DNA of 64,000 nucleotides, taken from Ichthyobacteriaceae bacterium (lineage in GTDB: Bacteria > Bacteroidota > Bacteroidia > Flavobacteriales > JADGDT01). Both the position numbers and the translations under genes were made by a program. Shown in pieces: positions 1,418 to 63,120 of the stretch (positions are counted from its first letter, which is position 1; each line of letters opens with the position of its first letter). The notes under the pieces were generated by a model. It saw only the letters and a program-made list of their open reading frames with translations. It did no database searches and had not been told where the DNA came from. The stretch spans positions 3,617-67,616 of the forward strand of contig JADGDT010000004.1 in assembly GCA_016744755.1 (NCBI GenBank), read 5' to 3'.

Positions 1418-1743
1418 ATACTTTTTTTTAGCAAGATGAAACTCAAATTATTATTTTACTAATACTGTAAACTTGAATCTCAAATTAAGGTTACAACTAT
1501 TTATTTTAATGTGTTTGGTATATCAAAAGTATATCAATAGGTTAGGTTGAAACATTTAATGCACCCCAAACATATCAAGTCTAGTTTTGATATAAATCAA
1601 CTATCTCAAGCAAAAATTAGAATTAGTGATTATAACTATTAAAAAACATATGCAAGATCATGGTTAATGCAAATTCATGGATTGGTACTAAATCAATTAA
1701 CTCATATTTCAATTCAAAAAAGTAAACTATATTTTCATTTTTA

Positions 1744-2044
1744 GGTTCTCCCTGAATGTTGTGGAAATATCGTCACCTTGTACGTGGTTGGTGAGTGTGT
1801 TTGGTGAGCGTGTTTGGTGAGTGTGTTTGGTGAGCGGAGCCGAACCAGATCCTAACCAGAGCGGAACCAGAGCCGAATGTGGTCTATTTTAATAGTTTAC
1901 ATTGTGTAATCACTATTGCTATAGATCTTTCTACAACATTTCCTTTTGTTCCCCATTCGGCTTCGCTCAGGGCAGGCAACAAAGGAAATTCTACTCAAGA
2001 CGACTATTCTAAATTACAACTTCCACACAAATAAAGGTAGAACC
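1744..2044 (+). mobile_element. MITE-like non-coding element, copy E1 (301 bp)
   Basis: Terminal inverted repeats: GGTTCTCCCTGAATGTTGTGGAA versus the reverse complement of the right end, GGTTCTACCTTTATTTGTGTGGAA. A perfect 8-bp direct repeat CATTTTTA flanks it at 1736-1743 and 2045-2052. No ORF. The ends are shared with four other copies in the window. Confidence 0.75.
1790..1836 (+). repeat. 13-bp tandem array GGTGAGYGTGTTT (about 3.5 units) inside E1
   Basis: Direct reading gives units at 1790, 1803, 1816 and 1829, alternating T/C at position 7. Confidence 0.9.
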
Positions 2045-2224
2045 CATTTTTAATGACAGACTTTATAAATTAAAATATATTTATTTCAACATTGTTAAAG
2101 CCTATACATTAAATCTAAAAAAAAGCAAGTAACATACAACATGTTCATTATCATGTTTTTACACTTGTAAAATTTGTATCTTAATGTCGTTTTTAACTAG
2201 ATAATTAATCAAAATACTTCCACA

Positions 2225-3682
2225 ATGAAAAACTTATACTTAATTCTAGCTATTTGCTTAATTTCAACATTTACATTTGGGCAAAAAAATCATTATCAAA
2301 ATAACTTAAATGACAACAATAGTATTCAACTCAATAATTTGAATAAATTAGAGATATTTGAGTTAAACGAAAATGCTATTCATAATGATATTATTTCACA
2401 AAAAAAGAAGTCCTACTCTAAAACTAACGAAAACAAACAGGGTGTTAGTGAATATATAAATACGGCAAAAAATTGGAATACTGGAACGGTTGAGAACTCT
2501 TCAAAAGTAGTTTTTAATTACAATTCTCAAGGTCAATTATATCTTAAAACATATTACTCATGGGATAACAACAGATGGAATTATTCCCTGAAATTTGAAT
2601 ATGTATATGCTTCTGGAAAACTAAGCATGTTGACTGACTATTGGTATGAGAATAACTCTTGGCAAAAAAACACCAAAACTACTTATAGCTACAATGCTGA
2701 AGGGAATGTAGTAATTGCTGTAAAACAATATCAGCATAATAGTGTATGGACAAATTATACTAAGATAGATTATACATACAATCAGTATCATCGTCTAGAT
2801 TATTTTATAGATTATAATTGGACAGCTGTAGTTTCTAATTGGACACAAATAAATAAGACATTATACGGTTACGGCAGTTCTAAAAAGAACACAAACTCTA
2901 ACCATAATATTTATTTTATAACGGTATATAAGTCTGATAATGGTTGGGTTAATTATCGCAGAACAGCTTATACTTATGATGATTATGATAATGTAATTAG
3001 TGAAGCAAGTGAGGGTTGGACAGCACCACCATCTAGTGTTGGCAAGACTTTAGATTGGAATACATTTTCTAAATTAGATTATACTTATGATGTTAGCAAT
3101 AGGTTGGTGGAATATATTACTTGGTATTCTGATGGAACAAATTTAATGGAATACTATAAGAATAATTATACTTATGACGAATATGACAATGTGGATCTAC
3201 AAATGGTATATAAGAGACAAGGAGGAGTGTGGAAAAATAATAATAGAGTAATAAACCTAGTGTATGATAATTCATTTTCTTCTGATGACTTAATTCTTCA
3301 TAATATTTTTGATGAAAAGATAGAAATCAAACATATGCTAAAAAGTATGGCAAATGAAGAGTGGACTAGCAGTAGTACATGGCAATCTACAGGAGGTATG
3401 AATATAGATTATGTAGAAGTACACACTTTGAATATAAATAGAGAAAAATTATTCTCAACAAAAGTTTACCCAAATCCATCAAATGGGTTCATTTCAATAG
3501 AGTTTGATAAAACTATGAGTAACCCTAGATTTGAAATATTTGAAAGTAACGGAAAAAGAATATTGCATAAAGAAATAAGCAACGGCGAAAAAATAAATAC
3601 TTCAAATTTTAAAAGTGGGCTTTATTTTTATAGATTATCGGATGGTTATAAAACTTCAAATGGTAAAATTTTGATAAAGTAA
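2225..3682 (+). CDS. Secreted T9SS cargo protein with YD-like repeats
   Basis: Signal peptide; degenerate repeats (YSYNAEGNVV, YTYDDYDNVISE, YTYDVSNRLVE, YTYDEYDNVDLQ); C-terminal ~80 aa fit the T9SS type-A sorting domain pattern (KVYPNPSNGFISIEF...GLYFYRL...ILIK). Confidence 0.7.
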   Translation: MKNLYLILAICLISTFTFGQKNHYQNNLNDNNSIQLNNLNKLEIFELNENAIHNDIISQKKKSYSKTNENKQGVSEYINTAKNWNTGTVENSSKVVFNYNSQGQLYLKTYYSWDNNRWNYSLKFEYVYASGKLSMLTDYWYENNSWQKNTKTTYSYNAEGNVVIAVKQYQHNSVWTNYTKIDYTYNQYHRLDYFIDYNWTAVVSNWTQINKTLYGYGSSKKNTNSNHNIYFITVYKSDNGWVNYRRTAYTYDDYDNVISEASEGWTAPPSSVGKTLDWNTFSKLDYTYDVSNRLVEYITWYSDGTNLMEYYKNNYTYDEYDNVDLQMVYKRQGGVWKNNNRVINLVYDNSFSSDDLILHNIFDEKIEIKHMLKSMANEEWTSSSTWQSTGGMNIDYVEVHTLNINREKLFSTKVYPNPSNGFISIEFDKTMSNPRFEIFESNGKRILHKEISNGEKINTSNFKSGLYFYRLSDGYKTSNGKILIK

Positions 3683-7623: not shown

Positions 7624-7742
7624 TATCGCAAAAATAACATTTTTTTTCTCATGACTTCATTATTTACTAATTATCAATGAATAATTATCAATTGTTAATG
7701 AACAATTAGCAGTTTCTGTATAATTAATTACTGTTCACTGAT

Positions 7743-7788
7743 AATTGTACACTGCTAACTGAAATTGTACACTGCTAACTGCTAACTG
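7743..7788. repeat. Direct repeats of AATTGTACACTGCTAACTG (2 copies) plus an extra CTAACTG
   Basis: Read directly at 7743-7761 and 7763-7781, then CTAACTG at 7782-7788. It lies in the lpxD-mnmA spacer. Confidence 0.85.
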
Positions 7789-7789
7789 T

Positions 7790-8977
7790 TCACGAAATAA
7801 CACCCGAGCCTATCAATTCATCTCCTATATACCATGCAGCAAATTGCCCTTCTGAAATTGCAGATTGATATTTCTCAAATTCAATATAAAGTCCAGAGTT
7901 AACCTTGTGTATTTTTGCTTTTTGTAAAGGCTGACGGTATCTAATTCTAGCATCAACGTCTAGATTTTTTCCTACATCTAAAGCTAAATCTAACCTTACC
8001 CAATGCAGTTCTTCGTTAGATATAAACAAACCCTTTCTTAGTAATCCTGGGTGAGAATGTCCTTGACCAGTGTAAACTACATTTGCCTCTACATCGGTTT
8101 CTATAACAAACAAAGGTTCTAACTTACCTCCTACTCCAAGTCCTTTTCGCTGACCTTTGGTGTAAAAATGTGCCCCTTGGTGCTTACCTACCACATCTCC
8201 ATCAACTTTTTTATACTTGTATCTTGTAGAAAGAAACTTTAATTCTTCCTCCTTAGTTTTAAATTCTTTATCCGTTGATTTGTAAATATCACTTTCACGC
8301 AACATCTCTACAATATCGCCTTCCTTTGGTTTTAATTGCTGTTTTAAGAAATCTGGCAACTTCACTTTACCAACAAAGCAAATGCCTTGCGAATCTTTTT
8401 TATCTGCCGTAATTAAATCTAACTTCTTTGCTATTTCTCTAACTTCTGGCTTTGTCATTTCGCCAATAGGAAAAAGTGTTTTTTCTAATTGTTTCTGAGA
8501 TAACTGACACAAAAAATATGATTGATCTTTATTATTATCTTTACCTGCTAGTAACTTGTAAACTGTCTCACCTTTAACTACTTCTTCGCTTTTACGAGCA
8601 TAGTGTCCCGTTGCTACAAAATCAGCTCCTAGATCTAGAGCAACATTCATAAATTCGGCAAACTTTATTTCTCTGTTACAAAGCACATCAGGGTTTGGTG
8701 TTCTTCCTTTCTCGTATTCGCTAAACATGTAATCTACCACTTTGTCGTGATATTTTTCGCTGAGATCAACTACCTGATATGGAATGCCTAATTTATCGGC
8801 AACCATCATAGCGTCGTTAGAATCTTCTAACCACGGACATTCATCGGAAATTGTTACGGATGTATCATGCCAATTAATCATAAAAACTCCAACAACATCA
8901 TATCCTTGCTCTTTAAGAACATATGCTGCAACGCTAGAATCAACACCTCCCGAAAGCCCTACTACTACTTTTTTCAT
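7790..8977 (-). CDS. mnmA: tRNA 2-thiouridine(34) synthase
   Basis: 395 aa with PP-loop [15 protein letters not shown] and conserved length. Confidence 0.95.
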
Positions 8978-12542: not shown

Positions 12543-12617
12543 GGTGGTTGTAGCTCAGTTGGTTAGAGCATCGGTTTGTGGTACCGAGGGTCGCCGGTTC
12601 GAATCCGGTCTTCCACC
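12543..12617 (+). tRNA. tRNA-His (anticodon GTG), copy 1
   Basis: Manual cloverleaf: G-1 opposite C73, U8, A14, G18G19, anticodon loop TTGTGGT, T-loop GGTTCGAATCC. No encoded CCA. Positions 5-68 and 6-67 are T-T mismatches. Confidence 0.85.
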
Positions 12618-12650
12618 CTAAGTTATTTAAAAAAGCAAAAAGTATTAAAT

Positions 12651-12725
12651 GGTGGTTGTAGCTCAGTTGGTTAGAGCATCGGTTTGTGGTACCGAGGGTC
12701 GCCGGTTCGAATCCGGTCTTCCACC
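12651..12725 (+). tRNA. tRNA-His (anticodon GTG), copy 2
   Basis: 75/75 identical to copy 1, with a 108-bp period. Confidence 0.85.
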
Positions 12726-12740
12726 CATTTTACTCTAAAA

Positions 12741-27507: not shown

Positions 27508-27520
27508 CTTTTAGAAATAA

Positions 27521-27553
27521 AAAATCCTTATAGCTAAATTCTATAAGGATTTT
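27521..27553 (-). terminator. Rho-independent terminator (minus strand)
   Basis: AAAATCCTTATAG/CTATAAGGATTTT 13-bp stem with a T-run on the minus strand. Confidence 0.55.
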
Positions 27554-27556
27554 TAG

Positions 27557-27691
27557 TTAATAATTTATGGTTCTAATTCCACAAGCTAGAAAAAAGTTCT
27601 TAAAGCTTTCTTTATGGTTATTGTTAGCTTCTTTTAGATCCTCCTTTTTGTCTTTTAATTTTTCCTTAATTTTTTCTATTTTATTTTTCAT
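27557..27691 (-). CDS. Possible 44-aa lysine-rich small ORF
   Basis: ATG...TAA encoding MKNKIEKIKEKLKDKKEDLKEANNNHKESFKNFFLACGIRTINY. It ends 3 nt before the terminator. There is no other support. Confidence 0.2.
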   Translation of the reverse strand: MKNKIEKIKEKLKDKKEDLKEANNNHKESFKNFFLACGIRTINY

Positions 27692-27872
27692 GCCTCAATA
27701 TTTTTTTTGGTTGTTAGACTGTTGTTTATTAAAAAAATATTAAAGTTTAGATTAGCATTTTGTACTAATAAAGTATTCATCAATAATGCTATCTGAAACG
27801 TAATGCAAAATAATAAATATAAATAAATTTATTCTAGTGTAAGGTCTATTTTTTTTACAATCATTAATGATT

Positions 27873-28056
27873 CTAAATATGACTAAGAATTAATTGCACA
27901 ACATATACAATGATCTCAACTATTTTTGTATTTGATATTCTGGTGCTCCTATGAGAAAATAGCTTAATACATACATAACTATCATCTGATAATAATTTTT
28001 GTAAAAGTAGACTTCCAGTTAAGCCAGTAGATCCAATTATTATTGCTGTTTTTCAT
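27873..28056 (-). pseudogene. N-terminal remnant of an NAD(P)-binding Rossmann (atypical SDR / NmrA-like) gene
   Basis: The frame from 28052 reads KTAIIIGSTGLTGSLLLQKLLSDDSYVCIKLFSHRSTRISNTKIVEIIV... and stops after 59 codons. The only ATG (28054-28056) is out of frame by +1 across an A5 run. Confidence 0.5.
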
Positions 28057-28096
28057 TCTTTCGAGATTTTAAAAGTTACTTTAATCTAAAATTTAT

Positions 28097-28274
28097 GGTT
28101 CCCTGATTTGTGTGAAAAACAAAAGAGTAGTAGAGTGAAAATTAGATTATAAGATTAGAGTATTACATAGTAAATACAATAGGTACAGTAATCATATAAT
28201 CCTTTAAACCCTTAATGTTTTATTTTCTTAAGGATATAATTTATTCAAATTCCCACAACATTAGTGGTAGTACC
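28097..28274 (-). mobile_element. MITE-like element, copy E2 (178 bp)
   Basis: Ends are GGTTCCCTGATTTGTGTGAAAA (left) and TTCCCACAACATTAGTGGTAGTACC (right). A perfect 8-bp direct repeat AAATTTAT flanks it at 28089-28096 and 28275-28282. Confidence 0.75.
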
Positions 28275-28278
28275 AAAT

Positions 28279-29283
28279 TTATAACTTATTAGCATAAATT
28301 ATCAAGTCAGCAAGTCTATTTGAATATCCCATTTCGTTGTCGTACCAACCAACTACTTTTACAAATTTATTGTCGATAACAGATGTTAGTAACGAATCGA
28401 ATGTACAAGAATATGGATTTCCAATAATATCAGTAGAAACAATTGGATCTTCAATGTATTTCAATATTCCTTTAAGCGAATTTTCTGAAGCATTTTTGAA
28501 AGCACTATTTATCTCTTCGATATTGGCATCTTTTTCTACATTGAAAGTAATATCGGTTAAAGAGCCATCTGGGACAGGTACTCTAATTCCACAACCTCCG
28601 ATATGAGTATCTAAGTGAGGAAAAATTTTAGTTATTGCTTTAGCTGCTCCTGTTGTTGTAGGCACAATAGATTGCGCTCCTGCTCTTGCTCTTCGCAAAT
28701 CTTTATGGGCTACATCGTGAAGTTTCTGATCTGTAGTATAAGAGTGAACTGTTGTGATGTAAGCAGTGTCTATCCCATACAAATCATCGATTACTTTAAC
28801 CATAGGAGCCGCATTGTTAGTTGTACATGAGGCATTCGAAATAATTGTGTCGTCAGAATTTAGAATCGTCTCATTTATCCCTAAAACTATTGTTTTAATA
28901 TCGTCGTCTTCAGGTGGAGCAGAAATAATTACTTTTTTTGCACCATTATCAATATGTATTCCTGCGAGTTCTTTCGTTTTGAATAATCCTGTTGCTTCAA
29001 CAACAAAATCAACATCTAAACCTCTCCAATTTAATTTATTAATATCTTTTTGATTAAATACTTTTACTGTATTCCCATCTACAATTATTGAATTTTCTTC
29101 AGAAGAAATTTCTGCATCAAATATTCTGTGAATTGAATCGTATTTCAGAAGATGGGCAAGTGTTTTAACATCAGCGAGATCGTTAATTGCAACAATTTCA
29201 AAATCCTTTCTCTTGTGCAAAACCCTAAAGAGGACTCTTCCTATTCTTCCAAATCCATTTATTGCTACACGTATTTTTTTCAT
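28279..29283 (-). CDS. gap: Glyceraldehyde-3-phosphate dehydrogenase, type I
   Basis: INGFGRIGR and active-site SNASCTTN motifs, 334 aa. Confidence 0.95.
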   Translation of the reverse strand: MKKIRVAINGFGRIGRVLFRVLHKRKDFEIVAINDLADVKTLAHLLKYDSIHRIFDAEISSEENSIIVDGNTVKVFNQKDINKLNWRGLDVDFVVEATGLFKTKELAGIHIDNGAKKVIISAPPEDDDIKTIVLGINETILNSDDTIISNASCTTNNAAPMVKVIDDLYGIDTAYITTVHSYTTDQKLHDVAHKDLRRARAGAQSIVPTTTGAAKAITKIFPHLDTHIGGCGIRVPVPDGSLTDITFNVEKDANIEEINSAFKNASENSLKGILKYIEDPIVSTDIIGNPYSCTFDSLLTSVIDNKFVKVVGWYDNEMGYSNRLADLIIYANKL

Positions 29284-44283: not shown

Positions 44284-44682
44284 GGTTCTACCACTAATTC
44301 AGTGTAACAATTATCACCCTGAGACTTAAGCTTTTTTCAAAAAAACTCCAATGGGTTAATGACGATTTAAACCTCGCAAAGTCGCAAATACACTAAGGAA
44401 ATTAGCTTTGTGACTCTGCCACTTTGTGAGATAAACACAAAGTCGTAATGGGTAGCGAGCCTGCTTGCAGTAGGCAAGTCCAAAGAAAGCCTACCTAACG
44501 ATAGGTTGAGTTGAAAAGTCTGTACTGAACGTAGTCAAATGTAGTCTATCCCAAAATAGATTACATTATGTTCTAACTGTTTCTATATATTTCAGATACA
44601 TTCCCTTAATTTCATTAAGTGAATCTCGTTCAATATGACGGTTTTTCTAAATTTGAAAATCCATTAAAATAACAGTAAAACC
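44284..44682 (+). mobile_element. MITE-like element, copy E3 (399 bp, longest)
   Basis: Left end GGTTCTACCACTAATTCAGTGTAACAATTATCACCCTGAG. The right end TCAATATGACGGTTTTTCTAAATTTGAAAATCCATTAAAATAACAGTAAAACC aligns with the right ends of E1 and E5. An internal block is shared with E1. Flanks match only 5/8. Confidence 0.6.
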
Positions 44683-44694
44683 AATAAATTTTTA

Positions 44695-45315
44695 TCACAG
44701 ATTAAAAGCCAATTTCAGCCCCGATATAAACATGTCAATACCAATCACACCAATTATTAAACCCATAATTTTTGCAATAACTTGAATTACGTTATCTCCT
44801 ATTTTTTCAACAATAAAATCGCTAGATCTGAAAGCTAAATAAGTAAGTATAGACACTAATGCAAATGAAGATATTGTGGTAACTACAGAAATAGGTTCAT
44901 TGGGATTCACATAATTCATTGCAGTTACAATTGTACCTGGACCTGCTAGAATAGGTGTTGCAAGTGGAGAAATTGCTTGTCCTAAATCAAAATCTTTTAG
45001 AGCAACTTTAGTGTTTTTTGTCGACGGCTTTTTTGATTGCACCATTTCTAGTCCAACCATAGAAATTAATAAACCTCCAAATATTTTAAATCCTGGAATT
45101 GTTATTCCGAAGAATGTGAATAGGTAAGATCCTAAAGCAACAAAAACTGCAACTACTATAAATGCAACTAATGTAGATTTAAAAGCCACCTCTTTTTTAG
45201 TCTCATTATCAGCTTCCTTGGTTATGGTTATAAAAAAAGGAGTCATTGCAATAGGATTCATTATTGCGAATAGTCCTGAAAAAGATGCTATAAAAAAAGC
45301 CAATGTCTGATCCAT
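44695..45315 (-). CDS. MarC family (UPF0056) membrane protein
   Basis: 206 aa, 6 TM segments, N-terminal FAIMNPI..PFF pattern. Confidence 0.85.
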   Translation of the reverse strand: MDQTLAFFIASFSGLFAIMNPIAMTPFFITITKEADNETKKEVAFKSTLVAFIVVAVFVALGSYLFTFFGITIPGFKIFGGLLISMVGLEMVQSKKPSTKNTKVALKDFDLGQAISPLATPILAGPGTIVTAMNYVNPNEPISVVTTISSFALVSILTYLAFRSSDFIVEKIGDNVIQVIAKIMGLIIGVIGIDMFISGLKLAFNL

Positions 45316-45340
45316 CTTTGTATTGTATTAAATCTTTAAA

Positions 45341-45386
45341 ATAAAAAAGTTCCACAATGTTTGCAATAAACAGAATGGAACTTTTA
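45341..45386 (-). terminator. Rho-independent terminator (minus strand)
   Basis: AAAAGTTCCA/TGGAACTTTT stem with a T-run on the minus strand, downstream of 45407..45985. Confidence 0.65.
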
Positions 45387-45406
45387 AAAGTAGATAGATG
45401 CTAAAA

Positions 45407-45985
45407 TTAGCGTCTTCTTCCTCCACCACCCATTCTGAAGTGGTCCATGTTTTTTTGAACAGGCATTTTAATTTGCGACTGTAGTTGTTTAATCTGATCT
45501 GTCAACATCTTAGACTTATCAAGTTTCTTTGCTGCTGTTAAGTATCTTTGAGCTTCCTGCTTTCTAGCTTTAGCCATTACCAATGCCGATAATTGTAGAT
45601 TTGCCATTGCTTTGTCATGATCCATATTCAAACCAATTTCCAATGCTTTCTTAAAATTCTTTTCTGCACTACCCATTGCTTTCCCTGATTGTTCTTGAGA
45701 ATCAATCAAACCACTTAAGTAATAATAATATGCTTGTTGAGATTTCACCAAACTAGTATCAGGATGTTTTATATATCCTAAAAATTTTGCTGCTTTTTCG
45801 AAATTTTGTTTTCTAAGGAACCAAAAAGTCAAAAGTATCATTTCGTTCTTGAAATAAGTAAAAAGTATAACTCCGCCCAACAATATTACTGCTATACCAT
45901 TTCCAATATATGAATCTGTGATAAGGAATATACCGTAAGTAAATGCGGCTACTGATAATAAAATTCTAATTATTTTTGATAACAT
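45407..45985 (-). CDS. Hypothetical membrane protein with a TPR-like soluble domain
   Basis: Two N-terminal TM helices, a helical repeat region and a GGGGRRR tail. Confidence 0.5.
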   Translation of the reverse strand: MLSKIIRILLSVAAFTYGIFLITDSYIGNGIAVILLGGVILFTYFKNEMILLTFWFLRKQNFEKAAKFLGYIKHPDTSLVKSQQAYYYYLSGLIDSQEQSGKAMGSAEKNFKKALEIGLNMDHDKAMANLQLSALVMAKARKQEAQRYLTAAKKLDKSKMLTDQIKQLQSQIKMPVQKNMDHFRMGGGGRRR

Positions 45986-46080
45986 ATGTTCCTAAAGTTT
46001 AAATCTTTCCCTAAATAAAATAAAAGGGAGTAAGTAATTAAGGGCGCAAAAGTAATGAATTTTAGAAAATACATTGATAT

Positions 46081-46719
46081 TTATTTATGACTTTTGTTCT
46101 TTAAGTTTTTATACGCCATTACACCTGCTTCAATTCTAGTATTAAGAGAGTTTTCACTAGGAGGAATAGGGCACGAATACTTGTGATTATATGCACAATA
46201 TGGGTTATATGATTTATTAAAATCAATTACTAGCACTTTGCCTTCAGGTATTTTTAAGTCGATATATTTACCTCCAGAATAAGAACTATTACCAGATGTT
46301 AGATCAGTATAAGGAATAAACAAGTGATCTTCGTAGCCTTCTATATTCATTGCTTTTTGATTCTGATAAACATTTAGTTGGTATATTTTTCCATCAATCT
46401 CAAAAGTAGCAACTCCATATTTTTTATACTCGGGTAATCTATCTGTTGTTGTTGGCATTCCAAAAACTGGCTCGTAAGGTGTTCTTTCTAAATTTGCTTC
46501 TACTCTAAATTTAGAGTCTATCGTGTAAAAATCTAAACCTTTAAAAACAGAAAGACCTTCTTTAGTTAGAGGAGATTCTAGTGGTTTTTCAAACTCTGAA
46601 TTTTGTTCCTTCTGCCAGGTTTGTACTTCTATCTTAAATCCTGTGTTTTGTTCTTGAGCAGAGACACCTATACTTATTGATAAAAATAGAGATAATCGGA
46701 GTAATTGTAATATTTTCAT
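46081..46719 (-). CDS. DUF1684 family protein
   Basis: Signal peptide and a C-terminal pattern YNPYCAYN..YSCPIPP typical of DUF1684. Confidence 0.75.
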   Translation of the reverse strand: MKILQLLRLSLFLSISIGVSAQEQNTGFKIEVQTWQKEQNSEFEKPLESPLTKEGLSVFKGLDFYTIDSKFRVEANLERTPYEPVFGMPTTTDRLPEYKKYGVATFEIDGKIYQLNVYQNQKAMNIEGYEDHLFIPYTDLTSGNSSYSGGKYIDLKIPEGKVLVIDFNKSYNPYCAYNHKYSCPIPPSENSLNTRIEAGVMAYKNLKNKSHK

Positions 46720-46782
46720 TTTTATTAAGTTTTATTTTGTGAAAATAGTAATTTCGCGCTTTGTAAACATAAAAAAATCAAT

Positions 46783-47964
46783 TTGAAAAAATATATATTC
46801 TTTATTCTCTTTTTATTAGGAACAAACTATTCCTGTAATACAGACACCCCAACTGTAAAAAAGGTTAAAATTAAAGAAATAGAGAAATTTAAAGAAGAAG
46901 AAATTATTTTAGAATTTAACGATGAGGTTGTTTCTAAAATTGATAAATATTTTGATTACAGAAGAAGAATTGGAAGATTTAATGGAGTAGTACTTTTTGC
47001 AGATGGAAACACCGTTTTTCAAAAAGCTTATGGGTTTTCAAATTTCAGAGAGAAAGATTCGCTCACAATCAACACTAGTTTTCAACTAGCCTCGGTTTCT
47101 AAAACAGTTACAGGAACAGCAATACTAATACTTAAGGATGAAGGCAAAATATCTCTTTCAGATTCTATTCAAAGATTTTTACCAAATTTCCCATATAAAG
47201 GAATTACAATAGAGCAACTACTTTCTCATAGAAGTGGATTAGGTAACTATGTTTATTGGACAGAAAAGTATTGGCTAAATCAAGACTCACTGATGAGTAA
47301 TGATGATGTTCAGAAAATGATGTCAGAACATAAGCCTGCAGTTTATTACAGACCTAATAGAAAATATAATTACAACAATACAAATTTTGAGCTCTTAGCT
47401 ACTATAGTTGAGAAAGTATCGGGCTTAAGTTTTGAAGAGTATTTGAAACAAAATATTTTCACTCCTCTAAAAATGGAAGATTCATTTCTATTTTCTAGGT
47501 CAAGCATAAAAACACACGAATCAGCTACAGGATATAAAAATAAATGGAGACCGTATTCATATTTTTTCTTGGATGGAGTACATGGAGATAAAGGTCTGTA
47601 TTCTACTGTTGGAGATTTATACAAGTTTGATAGAGCAATGCGTAAAGGGTTTCTACTATCCGATTCTACCAAAACAGATGCATATACAAATAGATCTAAA
47701 TACTATAGAAAACCCTACGGTCTAGGCTGGAGGCTTGACACCTACAAAGGCAATAAGGTAATTTACCACCACGGTTGGTGGCGAGGATTCAAAACATATT
47801 TCATAAGAAACATTGAGGATGATAAGACTATAATTATTCTTTCAAATACTGTTAATGGTAGTAAATTCAATAATAAATTGTTATTGAAATTATTTGATGA
47901 TGCCCTTAAATCATCTATTGTAAAAATAGAAAACAAGTCTTCTGAGAGTAAAACAAAAGTATAG
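46783..47964 (+). CDS. Serine hydrolase / beta-lactamase family lipoprotein
   Basis: SVSK (SxxK) motif and a YSN-type region. Uses a TTG start. Confidence 0.8.
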   Translation: MKKYIFFILFLLGTNYSCNTDTPTVKKVKIKEIEKFKEEEIILEFNDEVVSKIDKYFDYRRRIGRFNGVVLFADGNTVFQKAYGFSNFREKDSLTINTSFQLASVSKTVTGTAILILKDEGKISLSDSIQRFLPNFPYKGITIEQLLSHRSGLGNYVYWTEKYWLNQDSLMSNDDVQKMMSEHKPAVYYRPNRKYNYNNTNFELLATIVEKVSGLSFEEYLKQNIFTPLKMEDSFLFSRSSIKTHESATGYKNKWRPYSYFFLDGVHGDKGLYSTVGDLYKFDRAMRKGFLLSDSTKTDAYTNRSKYYRKPYGLGWRLDTYKGNKVIYHHGWWRGFKTYFIRNIEDDKTIIILSNTVNGSKFNNKLLLKLFDDALKSSIVKIENKSSESKTKV

Positions 47965-48081
47965 TTGGCAGTAATTAAGATACATTATATATAAAGACAT
48001 ATCTATCCTTATATTTTGAATGCATTTGATTAAAAGTTACATTTGATACTGAGTTTAATTATCAACTTAAAATCAATACAA

Positions 48082-48645
48082 ATGAAATTTATTAATTACG
48101 TGCTTATTTCATCGGCGTTTATGTTTGCGACTAGTTGCTCTGATGGAAATGCAGGAAAAGAACCTGTAAAAGCTAAAACAGAATCCGTACAAGAAAAAGG
48201 TCAATCTTCTGTACAAGATGAAGTTTCGGATCCTAACATTATTCAACTTGCTATAGCTACTAAAGATTTATCTACTTTAGTTGCGGGAATTCAGGCAGCT
48301 GAACTAGAAGATGTTTTGGCAAATGCTGGCCCTCTTACAGTTTTTGCACCTACAAATGCAGCTTTCGATAAACTTCCAGAGGGAGTACTAGCTGATCTTC
48401 TTAAACCTAAAAACAAAGATAAATTAGCTGCAATAATTAAATATCATGCAGCACCAGGTAATTACGATGCCGATCACATTAAAGGTGTTATGGGGATTGG
48501 ACAGGCAACAGGAGAAAAAGTTGTTGTAGAAGTTAAAGATGGCGTTACTTACGTAAATGGTGCAAAGGTTTTAGCATCAGTAAAAGCTACTAATGGGTAT
48601 GTACACGTTATAGATGGAGTACTTTTACCTCCTCCTGCAAAATAA
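48082..48645 (+). CDS. Fasciclin (FAS1) domain lipoprotein
   Basis: Lipobox ATSC from the internal Met, then TVFAPTNAAF and GYVHVIDGVLLPP motifs. Confidence 0.85.
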   Translation: MKFINYVLISSAFMFATSCSDGNAGKEPVKAKTESVQEKGQSSVQDEVSDPNIIQLAIATKDLSTLVAGIQAAELEDVLANAGPLTVFAPTNAAFDKLPEGVLADLLKPKNKDKLAAIIKYHAAPGNYDADHIKGVMGIGQATGEKVVVEVKDGVTYVNGAKVLASVKATNGYVHVIDGVLLPPPAK

Positions 48646-48668
48646 GAATATAGAATATTTTTTTTATA

Positions 48669-48705
48669 AAAAGAGCCTTCGCATAATTTGTGAAGGCTTT
48701 TTTAT
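48669..48705 (+). terminator. Rho-independent terminator
   Basis: AGCCTTC/GAAGGCT stem followed by TTTTTT. Confidence 0.7.
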
Positions 48706-48945
48706 AGATATAATTTTGTGCCAGAGATAGAAGCGATAGCTTGTTTGTACCAAAAATTGTGAAGCTGTTATTTGTATAGCGACAATAGGAGCTCCTACAA
48801 ATAATGTTTAGCTGAACATATTTTGGTATAAATAACTTTAGCGTATAGCTCGATACCCATTTTTCATGGGTAGGCAGTATTAAAAACACTAGCATTACTT
48901 GATTCTTTACAAATAACTTTTAAATTTGTTGCAATTGAACTGAGC

Positions 48946-50124
48946 ATGAATATTTATAGGACGAAAAGTGTAAGTAAATGGGTGGGGTTGATTTTTGCAT
49001 TTACCATAGTTGCTTTGATATTATTTTTTACTAATAAATTTGTTGGTAAATTTAAAGAAGAGGAACAGCGTAAAATGGAAATCTGGGCTGCAGCAATGAA
49101 ACAGGTAACTATTCTTAGTGATCTGGATGTTGATATGTCTTTTCCTTTAGAAGTGATTACTAAAAATGTGACAATTCCAATTATTAATACCGATGAAGAT
49201 GGAATCATTAAAACATACAGGAATATAGGAGATAATTTTAAAGGAGATTCGTTGACTTTGTACGCTATTCTTGTGGAGATGAAAGAGGAACATGAACCTA
49301 TTATTATTGATTATCCGGATATGCGTAGGGAGTATGTTTTTTACAGGAACTCCGATATTCTAAACCAACTAGAGTATTATCCTATTGGAATGTTATTGAT
49401 GCTTAGCTTTTTTGGAGGACTAACTCTTTGGGCATTTAAATCTACAAAAAATTCGGAACAAAGCTTATTGTGGGCTGCCATGGCAAAAGAAACAGCTCAC
49501 CAAATAGGCACTCCATTATCATCGCTAATGGGGTGGACAGAATTATTGAAATTTGAGGATATTGATCAAACTCCCATCAACGAAATAGAACGTGACATTG
49601 ATAGACTAAAGACTATAGCTGAGCGTTTTTCTAAAATTGGTTCTGTACCAGAATTGGAATTTGGTAAAATTGTTGGCGTAACCAAAGTATCATACCTATA
49701 CTTAAAATCTCGTTCATCGAAGTACACACATTTTACTTTTGAATCTGATATTAAAAGGGATTTAGAAATTCCTTTTAATGAACAGCTTTTAAGTTGGGTT
49801 TTAGAAAATCTTATAAAAAATTCTATTGATGCAATGCAGGGAAAAGGAAACATATCTGTGAGACTTATTGAAACAAAAAGTCATGTACAAATAGAAGTTG
49901 AAGATACAGGTAAAGGTATTGCCAAATCTGAATTTAACACAGTTTTCGAGCCAGGTTTTACTACTAAAAAACGCGGTTGGGGCTTAGGACTTTCTCTTGC
50001 CAAAAGGATAATAGAACAATATCATTACGGTAAAATATTCGTTCTTCAATCTGAAATAGGAAAGGGTACAACTATTGCTCTTAGACTTAGAAAAAAAATG
50101 ACTAATAAACCAAGTAAAGCTTAA
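48946..50124 (+). CDS. Sensor histidine kinase (orphan)
   Basis: Two TM segments, H-box ETAHQIGTPLSSL, and HATPase N, G1 and G2 boxes (NLIKNSIDA, DTGKGI, GWGLGL). No response regulator is adjacent. Confidence 0.88.
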   Translation: MNIYRTKSVSKWVGLIFAFTIVALILFFTNKFVGKFKEEEQRKMEIWAAAMKQVTILSDLDVDMSFPLEVITKNVTIPIINTDEDGIIKTYRNIGDNFKGDSLTLYAILVEMKEEHEPIIIDYPDMRREYVFYRNSDILNQLEYYPIGMLLMLSFFGGLTLWAFKSTKNSEQSLLWAAMAKETAHQIGTPLSSLMGWTELLKFEDIDQTPINEIERDIDRLKTIAERFSKIGSVPELEFGKIVGVTKVSYLYLKSRSSKYTHFTFESDIKRDLEIPFNEQLLSWVLENLIKNSIDAMQGKGNISVRLIETKSHVQIEVEDTGKGIAKSEFNTVFEPGFTTKKRGWGLGLSLAKRIIEQYHYGKIFVLQSEIGKGTTIALRLRKKMTNKPSKA

Positions 50125-50513
50125 ATATTTGAAGATATTTCTCCTGCGATTTGTTTAAATTCTTCTTCTGTAAATTTTAGTTTTTCTTTCTCGAAACTAA
50201 TATCTGATAGTTTATTGATTGGAATCAAGTGTATATGAGCATGAGGTACATCTAATCCTACAACTGCTACTCCTACTCTATTACATGGAATAGTTTTCTC
50301 TATTCCCTTAGCTACTTTTCGTGCAAACTTTTGCAAATCTAAATACTTGTCTTCTGGCAAATCAAAAAGGTTATCAACCTCGTGTTTTGGAACAACTAAG
50401 GCGTGACCTTTTGCCGTAGGAAATATATCTAAGAAAGCATAGTTATTCGCATCTTCTGCTATCTTGTAAGAAGGTATTTCGCCGTTTATTATTTTTGTGA
50501 ATATTGATGCCAT
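50121..50513 (-). CDS. HIT family (Hint-like) protein
   Basis: HAHIHLIP histidine triad, 130 aa. Confidence 0.9.
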   Translation of the reverse strand: MASIFTKIINGEIPSYKIAEDANNYAFLDIFPTAKGHALVVPKHEVDNLFDLPEDKYLDLQKFARKVAKGIEKTIPCNRVGVAVVGLDVPHAHIHLIPINKLSDISFEKEKLKFTEEEFKQIAGEISSNI

Positions 50514-50540
50514 AACTCTAAATTTTAAGGTTTAAGTAAA

Positions 50541-50574
50541 AATAAAAAAAACTCCCCAATAATGGAGAGTTTTA
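50541..50574 (-). terminator. Rho-independent terminator of greA (minus strand)
   Basis: AAACTCTCC/GGGGAGTTT stem with one mismatch, then a T-run on the minus strand. Confidence 0.6.
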
Positions 50575-50594
50575 GAATTTTGATATAATCTATT

Positions 50595-51068
50595 TTATCT
50601 CGAAATATCTACAATTTCAAATTCCATAGTTCCATTAGGAACTTCAATTTCTGCCTTATCTCCTACTTTTTTCCCTAGTAAACCTTTAGCTATAGGTGAA
50701 TTTACCGAAATTTTACCAGCTTTTAAATCTGCTTCGTTCTCTGCAACAAGAGTGTAGACCATTGTGGCTCCATTTGCAATATTCTTAATTTTAACGATAG
50801 ATAAAACAAGAACTTTAGATGTGTCTAATTGAGACTCATCAATAATTCTTGCATTAGAAAGTCTATCTTCTAATTTAGAAATATGCATTTCCAACATTCC
50901 CTGAGCTTCCTTTGCTGCATCGTATTCTGCATTCTCCGATAAATCTCCTTTATCTCTAGCTTCTGCAATTTGACCTGTAACTCTTGGTCTTTCAATAGAT
51001 TTTAATTGATGTAATTCATCTTTTAAATCCTTTAATCCTTGTTCTGAATAATATGATATTTGTGACAT
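50595..51068 (-). CDS. greA: Transcription elongation factor GreA
   Basis: 157 aa from the internal Met (MSQISYYSEQGL...) with GDLSENAEYDAAKE. Confidence 0.93.
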   Translation of the reverse strand: MSQISYYSEQGLKDLKDELHQLKSIERPRVTGQIAEARDKGDLSENAEYDAAKEAQGMLEMHISKLEDRLSNARIIDESQLDTSKVLVLSIVKIKNIANGATMVYTLVAENEADLKAGKISVNSPIAKGLLGKKVGDKAEIEVPNGTMEFEIVDISR

Positions 51069-51272
51069 AATGCACTTGATTTTAAATAACAAAATAGTCG
51101 GAAAAAAATCCCTCTTAAAAATAGGGATTGCATCTTTCCGACCTTATAAATACAAATATATGCTTTTTTTATTTTTGAGCCAAAACTGTGATGGTTTAAT
51201 GTTCGTTTTCAAGTTATTATTTGACTTTTATTGTGTTATATTTAAAATCTTAAACATAACTAATACAATAAC

Positions 51273-54056
51273 ATGCAAACGTTTATTTCTCAAGTAGTAA
51301 AGAGTCTTCTCAATTCTGAAACCGAAATAGAAAATCAGATAATTATACTTCCATCTAAAAGAGCAGGAGTGTTTTTTAGAGATGAACTTTTACGTCAGAT
51401 TACACATTCTACTTGGGGACCAAAAATATACACAATAGAAGATTTGGTTACCGAAATAAGCTCTTTGAAAATTGTCGATAACATTCAACTTCTATTTAAT
51501 TTTTACGAGGTTTACCTCAAAAATAGTATTGATAAAAATCACGATACATTCGACCAATTTAGTAAGTGGGCAACAATGGCTCTTTACGATTTTAACGAAA
51601 TTGACAGGTATTTAGTCGATTCTAAAAAGTTATTCTCTAATCTTAGAGATGCAAAGAAAATAGAGAGTTGGACACCCGAAGAACCTACAAAATTGATGAA
51701 ACAATTTTTGAGGTTTTGGGATAGGTTAGAAATTTACTACAACGAATTTAGGACAAAATTAACCGCCGAGGGTTTGGCTTACCAAGGAATGGCTTTTAGA
51801 GTAGCTAGCGAAAAAATAAATAACTTTTTAAATGATCTACCAATAGATAAAAAATTCCATTTAGTAGGATTCAATGCAATAAACAAAGCAGAAGAAAGTT
51901 TGATTAACAAATTGCTAGAAAGCGGTAAGGCTCATATTTATTGGGATGCAGACAAGTACTACGTTGAAAACAAAATACAAGAAGCTGGTTCGTTTTTAAG
52001 ACAACACCGAAAGAACTGGAAACACTTTGAAACAAATAGTTTTAATTGGATTCAGGATAACTTCTCTAAAGCAAAGAGGGTGAAAATTATTGGTGTTCCT
52101 AAAATGGTTGGGCAAGCAAAGGTAGCAGGGCAAATTTTAGATGATATTTCTAAAAAAGGAAATATTGATGATAAATTTAAATCGACAGCACTAGTTTTAG
52201 CTGATGAGAATTTACTTTTGCCAACTCTAAATTCACTTTCTGATGTGGTTGACAACATAAACATAACCATGGGTTACCCAATTAGGAATACTCCCATGGC
52301 AGGTTTATTTGAGTTAATTTTTAAGCTTCACGAAAAAGTTGTAAAACTCGGGAGGATAGAAGATGCCAAACCATTCTACTACCAAGATTTAGTAGCCATA
52401 CTAAAACATCCGATTGTGAAATCGTACTTGATAGAAATTGGTAAAAGCTCTGACGAAATCATAAATGAGATAAATAGTAAAAATTTAGTATTTGTTGGTT
52501 ATGACAATATGGAAATAATAAAGGATAACGAACTGCTAAAATTTGTTTTGCTTCCTTGGAAAAATAATAGTTCAATTGCTATTAAATCTTGCACTAGTAT
52601 AGTTTCTGTACTTAAAGATTTCTACTCCAAAGATTACAATTCACATCAAATAGATTTAGAGTATTTATTTAGATTCTCACAAATTTTCAACCAGCTATCG
52701 GGATTAGAAGTTAAATATACTTACATCTCGGAACTGAAAGTATTAAGTTCTTTTTTTAATCAAATACTCAATAGTGAAACACTTTCATTTAGGGGCGAGC
52801 CTTTGTTAGGATTGCAATTAATGGGAATGTTAGAAACAAGAGTTCTCGATTTTGAAACCGTGATTCTAACATCTGTAAACGAAGGAATATTACCAGCAGG
52901 GAGCTCTCAAAATTCATTTATCCCCTACGATATAAAAATAGATTCCGGATTACCAACCTATCAAGAAAAAGATGCTATTTACGCCTATCACTTCTACAGA
53001 TTAATTCAGCGTGCAAAGAATGTTTACTTGCTTTATAATACCGAAGCTGATGATTTTGGCTCTGGTGAAAAGAGTAGATTCATCACTCAGTTAATCAACG
53101 AAGCTGGTAAAAATATTGAGATTGAAGAATACATCCTCTCAGGGAAACCTTCTAAACCTGAAAATAGAAGTATAAGCATAAAAAAGAATGATAAGGTTTT
53201 AGACAGATTAAATGAACTGGGTGAAAAAGGATTTTCGCCATCGGCATTAGCAATGTACATGCGTAATCCTTTAGACTTTTATTACCAGAAAGTTTTGAGG
53301 TTGAAAGAACAAGACGATGTAGAAGAAATTGCAGGTTACAACACTTTAGGAAATGTTGTTCACGAAGTTTTGGAAGAATTGTACAAACCTTTTATCGGTA
53401 AATTTATTGAGGAAGAAGATGTAAAAAATATGATTCCTAAGGTTATTGATTTAACCAAACAAAAATTTGAAAAGCTATACCTCAATGGAGATATTAATCA
53501 CGGTAAAAACTTATTGATAAGTAAGGTTGCCGAAGAATTTGTAAATAATTTTCTCAATTCCGAAATTCAACTTTTGGCAAAAGGACATCAGCTAAAGATT
53601 ATAGGTTTAGAAAAAAAGATGACCGCCAAAGTTTATGTAAAAGAGCTAGATAAAACTGTTAATATTTTTGGATTTATTGATAGAGTAGATCAACTTGATG
53701 GAGTGATTAGAGTTTTAGATTACAAAACAGGAAAGGCTGAAAAGAAAGATTTAAAAATATTGTCATTTTCAAGTATAACTCAAGATGATGGAATGCCAAA
53801 AGCCTTACAAGTAATGGCTTATGCACTAATGATTCAGCAAGAGATGGAAGAAAAGTCATTGTCAAATCAAGAGATAAATGCAGGAATAATAGCATTGAAA
53901 AACATGAAAGACAATCTATTGATGTTGAGCGATACCAAAGGAAAAACTCTAAACATCACGAAAAAAGAACTCGATGACTACAAAGAATCTATGGCTAGTT
54001 TATTTGTAGAAATTTTCAGTGAAAAAATTCCTTTTGAAGAGAAAGTTTTGGTTTGA
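51273..54056 (+). CDS. AddB-like PD-(D/E)XK nuclease family protein
   Basis: 927 aa with a degenerate N-terminal helicase-like region and a C-terminal RecB-type nuclease motif (GFIDRVD...VLDYKTGK). No Cys cluster. Confidence 0.7.
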   Translation: MQTFISQVVKSLLNSETEIENQIIILPSKRAGVFFRDELLRQITHSTWGPKIYTIEDLVTEISSLKIVDNIQLLFNFYEVYLKNSIDKNHDTFDQFSKWATMALYDFNEIDRYLVDSKKLFSNLRDAKKIESWTPEEPTKLMKQFLRFWDRLEIYYNEFRTKLTAEGLAYQGMAFRVASEKINNFLNDLPIDKKFHLVGFNAINKAEESLINKLLESGKAHIYWDADKYYVENKIQEAGSFLRQHRKNWKHFETNSFNWIQDNFSKAKRVKIIGVPKMVGQAKVAGQILDDISKKGNIDDKFKSTALVLADENLLLPTLNSLSDVVDNINITMGYPIRNTPMAGLFELIFKLHEKVVKLGRIEDAKPFYYQDLVAILKHPIVKSYLIEIGKSSDEIINEINSKNLVFVGYDNMEIIKDNELLKFVLLPWKNNSSIAIKSCTSIVSVLKDFYSKDYNSHQIDLEYLFRFSQIFNQLSGLEVKYTYISELKVLSSFFNQILNSETLSFRGEPLLGLQLMGMLETRVLDFETVILTSVNEGILPAGSSQNSFIPYDIKIDSGLPTYQEKDAIYAYHFYRLIQRAKNVYLLYNTEADDFGSGEKSRFITQLINEAGKNIEIEEYILSGKPSKPENRSISIKKNDKVLDRLNELGEKGFSPSALAMYMRNPLDFYYQKVLRLKEQDDVEEIAGYNTLGNVVHEVLEELYKPFIGKFIEEEDVKNMIPKVIDLTKQKFEKLYLNGDINHGKNLLISKVAEEFVNNFLNSEIQLLAKGHQLKIIGLEKKMTAKVYVKELDKTVNIFGFIDRVDQLDGVIRVLDYKTGKAEKKDLKILSFSSITQDDGMPKALQVMAYALMIQQEMEEKSLSNQEINAGIIALKNMKDNLLMLSDTKGKTLNITKKELDDYKESMASLFVEIFSEKIPFEEKVLV

Positions 54057-54062
54057 ATCAAA

Positions 54063-54207
54063 GGTACGGCCACAAATGTTGTGGAAATATAAATAATTTA
54101 GCAATTATGTTATCACGACCGATGATAGGTAGATCCGCAAGCTCCAGTCGAAATTACGGCAATTACAAAGTTGTTAAACTTTACACAATGAAATAGGTTA
54201 GAGTACC
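54063..54207 (+). mobile_element. MITE-like element, copy E4 (145 bp, shortest)
   Basis: Left end GGTACGGCCACAAATGTTGTGGAAATAT, whose 17-mer AATGTTGTGGAAATAT is identical to E1. Right end TTACACAATGAAATAGGTTAGAGTACC. No flanking duplication found. Confidence 0.55.
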
Positions 54208-62853: not shown

Positions 62854-62925
62854 TGTTACTGTTTTTTGAAGTAAAAAAAATTAAGATAGCATAAGGTTTT
62901 TATGCTTATACTCCCTTAACTTTTT

Positions 62926-63097
62926 GGTTCTACGCTTATTTGTATGGAGCTTCTAATTTAGAATACTCGTCATATTGAGCGTGGTTGGTGAGCATGGTTC
63001 GGCTATGGTTCGGCTCCGCTCACCGACCATGCTCACCAACCATGCTCACCAACCATGCTCAGGGTGACGATTATTCCACAATATTCATGGTAGTACC
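62926..63097 (-). mobile_element. MITE-like element, copy E5 (172 bp)
   Basis: Ends are GGTTCTACGCTTATTTGTATGGA (left) and TTCCACAATATTCATGGTAGTACC (right). Flanks AACTTTTT and AATTTTTT match 7/8. The interior is collinear with E1. Confidence 0.75.
63021..63060. repeat. 13-bp tandem array CACCRACCATGCT (3 units) forming one arm of a long hairpin in E5
   Basis: Read directly. The left arm 62977-62998 pairs with 63026-47 at 21 of 22 positions. Confidence 0.85.
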
Positions 63098-63120
63098 AAT
63101 TTTTTAAACCATATTATTTT

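Follow-up and report, generated by a model that had tools for sequence, protein, structure and literature searches.

Five intergenic segments of 145–399 bp, all lying within 64 kb of the chromosome of an uncultured flavobacterial lineage, share related ends and lack a transposase gene. They raise the question of what kind of element they are, which enzyme moved them and how their sites relate to changes in the surrounding genome. [quoted passage not shown]

The window, meaning the whole 64,000 nt stretch that was analysed, has a G+C content of about 32 % and is part of a 110,890 bp scaffold of a metagenome-assembled genome (MAG; ENA ERZ28566751, BORC21-1_SAMN14087007_METAG-scaffold_33). The scaffold sequence examined comes to 77.7 kb, made up of the window, 3.7 kb before it and 10 kb after it. 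Proteins with the Por_Secre_tail domain of the T9SS are encoded in the window and place the genome in the Bacteroidota; the nearest named relatives of its gapA product (GAPDH) are those of Aquimarina and Kordia, at about 70 % identity.

Ends and flanks of the five copies

The 5′ terminus of E1 reads GGTTCTCCCTGAATGTTGTGGAA, and its right end, when reverse-complemented, reads GGTTCTACCTTTATTTGTGTGGAA. The imperfect terminal inverted repeats of about 24 bp and the perfect 8 bp flanking repeat that the original prediction ascribed to E1 can both be read directly from the sequence. Across the family the terminal inverted repeats, about 24 nt long, have the consensus GGTWCTACCnnnAWTnnTGTGGAA and come in two versions, an IRL-type end (..AATGTTGTGGAA) and an IRR-type end (..ATTTGTGTGGA). 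Each copy in the window pairs one end of each type, in the orientations given in Table 1.

Scored with a weight matrix derived exclusively from the ends in other genomes, seven of the ten ends in the window reach 12.8–32.7 bits; no score above 10.5 bits arose in 20 shuffles of the window. The scoring ends are the right ends of E1 (32.7 bits) and E2 (31.1 bits), both ends of E3 (19.2 and 12.8 bits) and of E5 (23.1 and 30.9 bits), and the left end of E4 (24.2 bits). The other three are the left end of E1, which equals the consensus minus one base, the left end of E2, which equals the consensus with a 3 nt deletion, and the right end of E4, which is badly degraded and recognisable only when indels are allowed. 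The consensus pattern itself has four matches in the window where 0.00 are expected. A fuzzy-regex scan overlooked ends that the weight matrix detected and was not relied on. No further family ends were found with the weight matrix, either in the window or in the additional 13.7 kb of scaffold. One match of 11.7 bits at 1021–1044 was rejected as an element because it lies within a porin gene and is kept as coding sequence in a related genome (L110).

That four other segments carry the same ends as E1 is borne out for E2, E3 and E5, and for E4 in part: its left end is good, its right end barely recognisable and its right boundary uncertain. E4 is a weak member of the family. The last base of E4 overlaps the stop codon of a LysR gene. 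The '17-mer' AATGTTGTGGAAATAT that E1 and E4 have in common is in fact 16 nt long.

Perfect flanking duplications (8/8) are found at E1 and at E2, the latter having gone unremarked in the original prediction, and E5 has a 7/8 match. When flanks are compared at random positions in the window, the chance of an 8/8 match is 5.5 × 10−5 per element and that of a match of at least 7/8 is 1.4 × 10−3 per element. At E3 and E4 the flanks match at only 5–6/8 and 4/8, respectively, which is not convincing as a repeat. One Logan contig from this genome terminates within E5.

Table 1. Positions of the element copies, their flanks and associated features (window coordinates)
Feature	Position	Strand	Sequence or description
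E1	1744–2044	+	301 bp MITE; IRL-type end left, IRR-type end right
E1 target duplication, left copy	1736–1743		CATTTTTA; read directly
E1 target duplication, right copy	2045–2052		CATTTTTA; read directly; perfect, 8/8
E1 internal tandem repeats	1783–1877	+	13 nt unit GTGTTTGGTGAGT × 3.9, then 11 nt unit GAGCCGAACCA × 3.7 (Tandem Repeats Finder)
NAD_binding_10 remnant	27891–28056	−	Immediately downstream of E2; located by tblastn with the intact L119 and L120 orthologues
E2	28097–28274	−	178 bp MITE; IRL-type end right; abuts the gapA stop codon
E2 target duplication, left copy	28089–28096		AAATTTAT
E2 target duplication, right copy	28275–28282		AAATTTAT; includes the gapA stop codon, 28279–28281
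E3	44284–44682	+	399 bp decayed MITE; IRL-type end left; at the left inversion breakpoint
Inverted block	44683–54062		MarC to 927 aa PD-(D/E)XK gene (44695–54056); blastn and tblastn against L099 and L116/L117
E4	54063–54207	+	145 bp degraded copy; IRL-type end left; at the right inversion breakpoint
E5	62926–63097	−	172 bp MITE; IRL-type end right; core forms a long hairpin
E5 left flank	62918–62925		AACTTTTT; 7/8 match to the right flank
E5 right flank	63098–63105		AATTTTTT

The ISL3 parent family

One genome per species was scanned for the end pattern GGTWCTACCNNNAWTDKTGTGGAA. At least 96 stretches matched, where about six chance matches would be expected as estimated from the information content of the pattern. 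Among the matches listed, all are in Flavobacteriaceae, Prevotellaceae, other Bacteroidales, Cytophagales, Sphingobacteriales, Rhodothermales or Ignavibacteriales, and many of them adjoin contig ends. Elements with two ends in these other genomes are either short (81–988 bp) or long (1268–1282 bp). The long ones, found in three Flavobacteriaceae MAGs (L010, L052 and L054) and in a member of the Rhodothermales (L030), each enclose a single ORF of 405 aa. Two of the 405 aa proteins were compared with profiles: both match Pfam DDE_Tnp_ISL3 (PF01610; 1e-67 and 1.5e-60, 228 and 205 bits against a cut-off of 23) and NCBIfam transpos_ISL3 (NF033550; 285 and 288 bits against a cut-off of 180), and both contain Zn_ribbon_ISL3, with HTH_Tnp_ISL3 present in the L030 protein only.

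Members of the ISL3 family are about 1.2–1.5 kb long, carry one ORF, have inverted repeats beginning with GG and generate an 8 bp duplication. The long elements agree with this in size, single ORF, GG ends and 8 bp duplication, and their profile scores lie above the cut-offs. The original reader did not recognise the ends as those of any named IS family; the full-length elements that carry the same 24 nt ends identify it as ISL3. Ends in this FCB clade begin with GGTTCTACC, whereas those of well-known ISL3 members begin with GGCTCTTCG.

The eight Rhodothermales copies have the same sequence throughout (100 % identity), and perfect 8 bp duplications flank seven of them. Perfect duplications also flank the full-length copy in L052 and short derivatives of 203, 227, 691 and 988 bp. 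Taken together, 14 perfect duplications are 86 % A+T despite a G+C content of 47 % at the Rhodothermales loci, which points to a preference for AT-rich targets. One Rhodothermales chromosomal copy (L030, 5282–6676) abuts or overlaps the 3′ end of a 464 aa ORF. Additionally, the IS copies of L010 and L052 are 97.6 % identical, although the G+C contents of the two MAGs are 35.5 and 29.3 %, which suggests recent horizontal spread. In a tblastn search of PLSDB the best plasmid-borne ISL3 transposase reached 35 % identity, with nothing closer; on this comparison, the parent clade is distant from plasmid-borne ISL3 elements.

The flavobacterial IS has a left end reading ..ACGAATGTTGTGGAA and a right end reading ..ACGATTTGTGTGGG. 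The likeness of the window copies to the FCB elements extends to the 24 nt ends, including the difference between IRL and IRR, to the AT-rich 8 bp duplication, and to the left sub-terminal region of E3, which is homologous to the 5′ UTR and start codon region of the IS: the left side of E3 aligns with the 5′ end of the L010 IS over about 65 nt, across the transposase start codon. Similarity to the IS 5′ end extends for about 38 nt in E2, and on the left of E4 it also continues past the repeat. In contrast to the full-length elements, the window copies are only 145–399 bp long, contain no transposase and have interiors unrelated to the IS. A tblastn search of the window with two ISL3 transposases as queries found no ISL3 transposase, and no full-length ISL3 copy is present in the 77.7 kb of scaffold.

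The five segments thus have the hallmarks of MITEs: each is shorter than 500 bp and without a transposase, the ends match those of an IS and the sites are several and unrelated; duplications of 8 bp accompany E1, E2 and, in near-perfect form, E5. In the proposed mechanism the window copies would have lost the transposase gene and kept the terminal inverted repeats of about 24 nt to which a transposase binds. An ISL3-type DDE transposase, supplied by a complete element at another place in the genome or by a former or transient resident, would bind both ends and insert the element at an AT-rich target with a staggered cut of 8 bp, the repair of which would yield the 8 bp duplication. We infer that mobilisation in this genome was in trans. 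The original prediction of MITEs moved in trans by an 8 bp-duplicating transposase encoded outside the window gains support from the ISL3 ends, the duplications and the empty spacers described below.

Interiors, age and other possible origins

The interiors of the copies are heterogeneous. E1 and E5, which lie in opposite orientation, are 82–87 % identical over most of E5, and E5 (62994–63061) carries the same 13 nt and 11 nt tandem units as E1 in other copy numbers. The 13 nt units of both copies are of the GGTGAGCRTGKTT type and the 11 nt units of the GAGCCGAACCA type; the IS contains neither. These repeats are G+C-rich, and in E5 they make up a stem of about 24 bp in the hairpin. They were found neither in the other loci compared nor in viral contigs. 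Elsewhere in the window, AT-rich tandem repeats with units of 14, 20 and 21 nt are clustered at 7664–7793, in the spacer between an lpxD-like gene and the next gene.

Two sub-terminal blocks are shared by E1, E3 and E5, as had been predicted. Block A (AATCGTCACCYTGAG) is present on the left of E1 and the right of E5, with a variant on the left of E3; block B (AATTTAGAAnAnnCGTC) is present on the right of E1, the left of E5 and the right of E3. E2 and E4 have little in common with the other copies past the ends. The idea that the copies are deletion derivatives of one another is therefore right in part, for the blocks of E1, E3 and E5 and for the interior of E1 and E5; E2 and E4 share mainly the ends. 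The prediction that none of the copies has an ORF stands as far as transposase-like ORFs are concerned; E1 does have mechanical ORFs of up to 51 aa (the largest with a GTG start), and no small ORF of E1 resembles a transposase by tblastn. None of the copies contains anything longer than such mechanical ORFs of 51 aa or less.

Outside the window, another Flavobacteriales MAG (L074) has, where one of its contigs stops, a copy with an intact element end that matches bases 1–160 of E3 at 82 % identity. The non-IS repeats shared by E1 and E5 and the 82 % identical relative of E3 in another MAG favour propagation of the elements as short forms. The copies in the window include no near-identical pairs and are at most about 87 % identical. 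Given this mutual divergence, the family looks old and not recently amplified, and its activity is probably not recent.

The same observations bear on the strongest competing explanation, in which each copy is the in-situ wreck of a separate full-length ISL3 insertion and none ever moved in its short form. The heterogeneous interiors would fit such an origin, as would the absence of near-identical pairs and the fact that E2 and E4 share only the ends and some 15–40 nt resembling the IS 5′ end. It does not, however, account for the non-IS interior repeats and both sub-terminal blocks shared by E1 and E5, for the 82 % identical short relative of E3 in another genome, or for the existence elsewhere of copies of 203–227 bp with perfect duplications, and as an account of the whole family it is considered unlikely. 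For E2 and E4 individually it is plausible; these two could equally be single in-situ deletion derivatives.

A second alternative is that the segments are not derived from a transposon at all, and instead represent a structured non-coding RNA or a host palindrome of the REP/BIME type. The core of E5 is a very stable hairpin (−41.8 kcal/mol, z = −8.45), and three of the five copies sit between convergent genes, where terminators are expected. However, E1 folds only marginally better than shuffled sequences (z = −2.4), the interior sequence is not kept from one copy to the next, the termini are identical to those of an IS, and there are target duplications. Rfam searches at the gathering scores, and with E-values of up to 5 admitted, yield a single match overlapping an element, RUF6-5, whose 26.5 bits compare with a gathering score of 70; this match is at chance level and a known RNA family was rejected, so that the check proposed originally, a scan to exclude a known structured RNA, finds no family on the elements. 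An RNA or host palindrome is accordingly held to be very improbable. The only Rfam matches above the gathering score in the window are two tandem tRNA-His(GTG) genes (12544–12618 and 12652–12726), which lie 33 bp apart and have identical scores. In the spacer upstream of a 392 aa gene, positions 48715–48859 resemble the Flavo-1 RNA motif below threshold (30.3 bits, gathering score 42, E = 0.021).

It could also be asked whether the mobiliser belonged to another family. IS6, IS1595 and IS256 likewise produce 8 bp duplications and have ends beginning with GG, and Gram-positive members of the IS6/IS26 group begin with GGTTCTG; the first six bases of the elements, GGTTCT, resemble such ends, and the duplication length agrees. 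The likeness to IS6-type ends nevertheless stops after 6 nt, all full-length elements carrying the 24 nt end encode ISL3 transposases and none an IS6-type enzyme, and the NCBIfam IS256 and IS481 matches of the 405 aa ORF fall far below the cut-offs. With ISL3 transposases in the full-length elements, IS6, IS1595 and IS256 were ruled out as parents, and a mobiliser from these families is scarcely credible. Chance similarity between ends in AT-rich intergenic DNA, for which only the low G+C content speaks, can be dismissed in view of four pattern matches against 0.00 expected, an end of 32.7 bits against the shuffle maximum of 10.5 and two perfect flank repeats.

Viral origin or carriage was also considered and rejected: in scans of IMG/VR, neither the end pattern nor the interior repeat of E1 and E5 nor block A had any match.

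Insertion sites and local genome change

The original prediction had proposed a search for orthologous sites that lack the element. Such spacers are found for E2 and E5, by spacer length and gene context rather than base for base, in relatives of other species with 80–93 % protein identity. The GAPDH of L119 is 93 % identical, and those of L120 and L121 90 % identical, to the gapA product of the window. In L119 a spacer of 35 bp separates gapA from an intact NAD_binding_10 gene, and in L120 and L121 the spacer is 33 bp (the gene being 217–220 aa); the window spacer, once E2 and one copy of the duplication are subtracted, is 36 bp. At the E5 site, between a 370 aa gene and an amino-acid-kinase gene, the window has 267 bp, equal to 172 + 8 + 87, and the orthologous spacer measures 85 bp in L114 (an 86 % relative), 63 bp in L115 and 129 bp in L116. 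E2 and E5 are thus missing from the corresponding spacers of related genomes, which is the insertion polymorphism characteristic of MITEs. No family ends were found in about 140 kb of syntenic fragments from relatives.

The 129 bp spacer of L116 (11114–11242; a 76 % relative) is palindromic. It was examined as a possible remnant of the family and set aside, the evidence being a single 16/17 nt match (AGTATTCTAGATTAGAA) to a sub-terminal block of E5 (z = 5.5), which is too little.

The target of E2 spanned the gapA stop codon, and the duplication left that codon intact. On the other side of E2, the NAD_binding_10 gene, which is intact in L119 and L120 and missing from L122, is reduced to a remnant that keeps only residues 3–56 of 217–220 (28052–27891); its start codon is out of frame owing to an A-run of five A's, compared with seven in the relatives. 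A conserved 44 aa ORF (27557–27691) survives in the region downstream of gapA and E2 (27508–28096).

A clean empty site for E1 was sought and not obtained, since the element lies in a 2 kb indel: relatives of the neighbouring porin (87–88 % identity) either have other neighbours or miss the 2 kb block. In L110 the porin is followed after 62 bp by EF-P, where the window has 2030 bp (1650–3679). This block holds E1 and a 485 aa Por_Secre_tail gene, whose product is a T9SS cargo protein. In L106–L109 the upstream neighbour of the porin differs, being a MoxR AAA ATPase.

E3 and E4 lie at the two breakpoints of an inversion of about 9.8 kb (44284–54207). In L099 the 927 aa gene converges on an MBL gene 44 bp away, and in L116 and L117 MarC converges on LysR at a distance of 3 bp; a single inversion accounts for both new junctions in the window, and E3 and E4 fill these junctions almost entirely. 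They are also the two copies without duplications. By rough estimate, the chance of E3 and E4 coinciding with the breakpoints is about 0.6 % if any spacer is allowed and about 5 % if only convergent spacers are considered. The link between the copies and the inversion is suggestive but unproven, and the missing duplication of E3 can also be explained by age.

Two routes could connect the elements to the inversion: a transposase may have acted on the ends of two different copies, or recombination between copies may have been followed by decay. An exchange of duplications between E3 and E4, as a recombination origin would leave, was looked for and rejected, the best flank pairing being 6–7/8 at shifted offsets. 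Simple homologous recombination between inverted copies does not agree with the shared orientation of E3 and E4, both of which have the IRL-type end on the left. That the ISL3-type ends themselves caused the 9.8 kb inversion is possible, though on the doubtful side; if they did, the MITE family would act to rearrange the chromosome of an uncultured flavobacterial lineage.

MITEs derived from ISL3 have been described before. Microcystis aeruginosa PCC 7806 carries a 187 nt ISL3-associated MITE with 8 nt direct repeats (PMC11448079). Like the window copies, it is short and non-coding, has inverted repeats matching ISL3, 8 nt repeats and stem-loop potential, and is presumably mobilised in trans; it differs in belonging to the Cyanobacteria, in having ends that begin with GGCTCTTCG, and in having been seen to move between laboratory strains (PMC11448079), whereas mobility of the window family is deduced from sequence comparison. 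Within the Bacteroidota, MITECca01 and MITECca02 of Cardinium derive from ISCca4, an element of the IS982 family (PMC9769881). These too are IS-derived, consist of the IS ends with a few sub-terminal bases and are mostly intergenic. In contrast, their parent is an IS982 element, and their 169 near-identical copies are kept by resident, intact copies of the IS (PMC9769881), whereas the window family comprises few, divergent copies and no parent is seen in the 77.7 kb of scaffold. For Bacteroidota genomes, MITEs have been reported in the tens of thousands by a large survey (bioRxiv 10.1101/2024.01.18.576219). Neither ISL3 nor Bacteroidetes is mentioned in a 2024 review of prokaryotic MITEs.

The window family is, in this light, ordinary mobile DNA, and nothing here alters the known working of MITEs or of ISL3 elements. 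Its value lies first in annotation: the 24 nt motif GGTWCTACCnnnAWTnnTGTGGAA flags an ISL3 clade and its miniature derivatives in Bacteroidota, Rhodothermales and Ignavibacteriales. The family also breaks short-read assemblies, as is apparent from the many matches at contig ends and the one contig that ends inside E5. Finally, it marks places of local genome change, being found at both breakpoints of the inversion, at the gapA stop codon immediately upstream of a gene that later decayed, and within a 2 kb indel.
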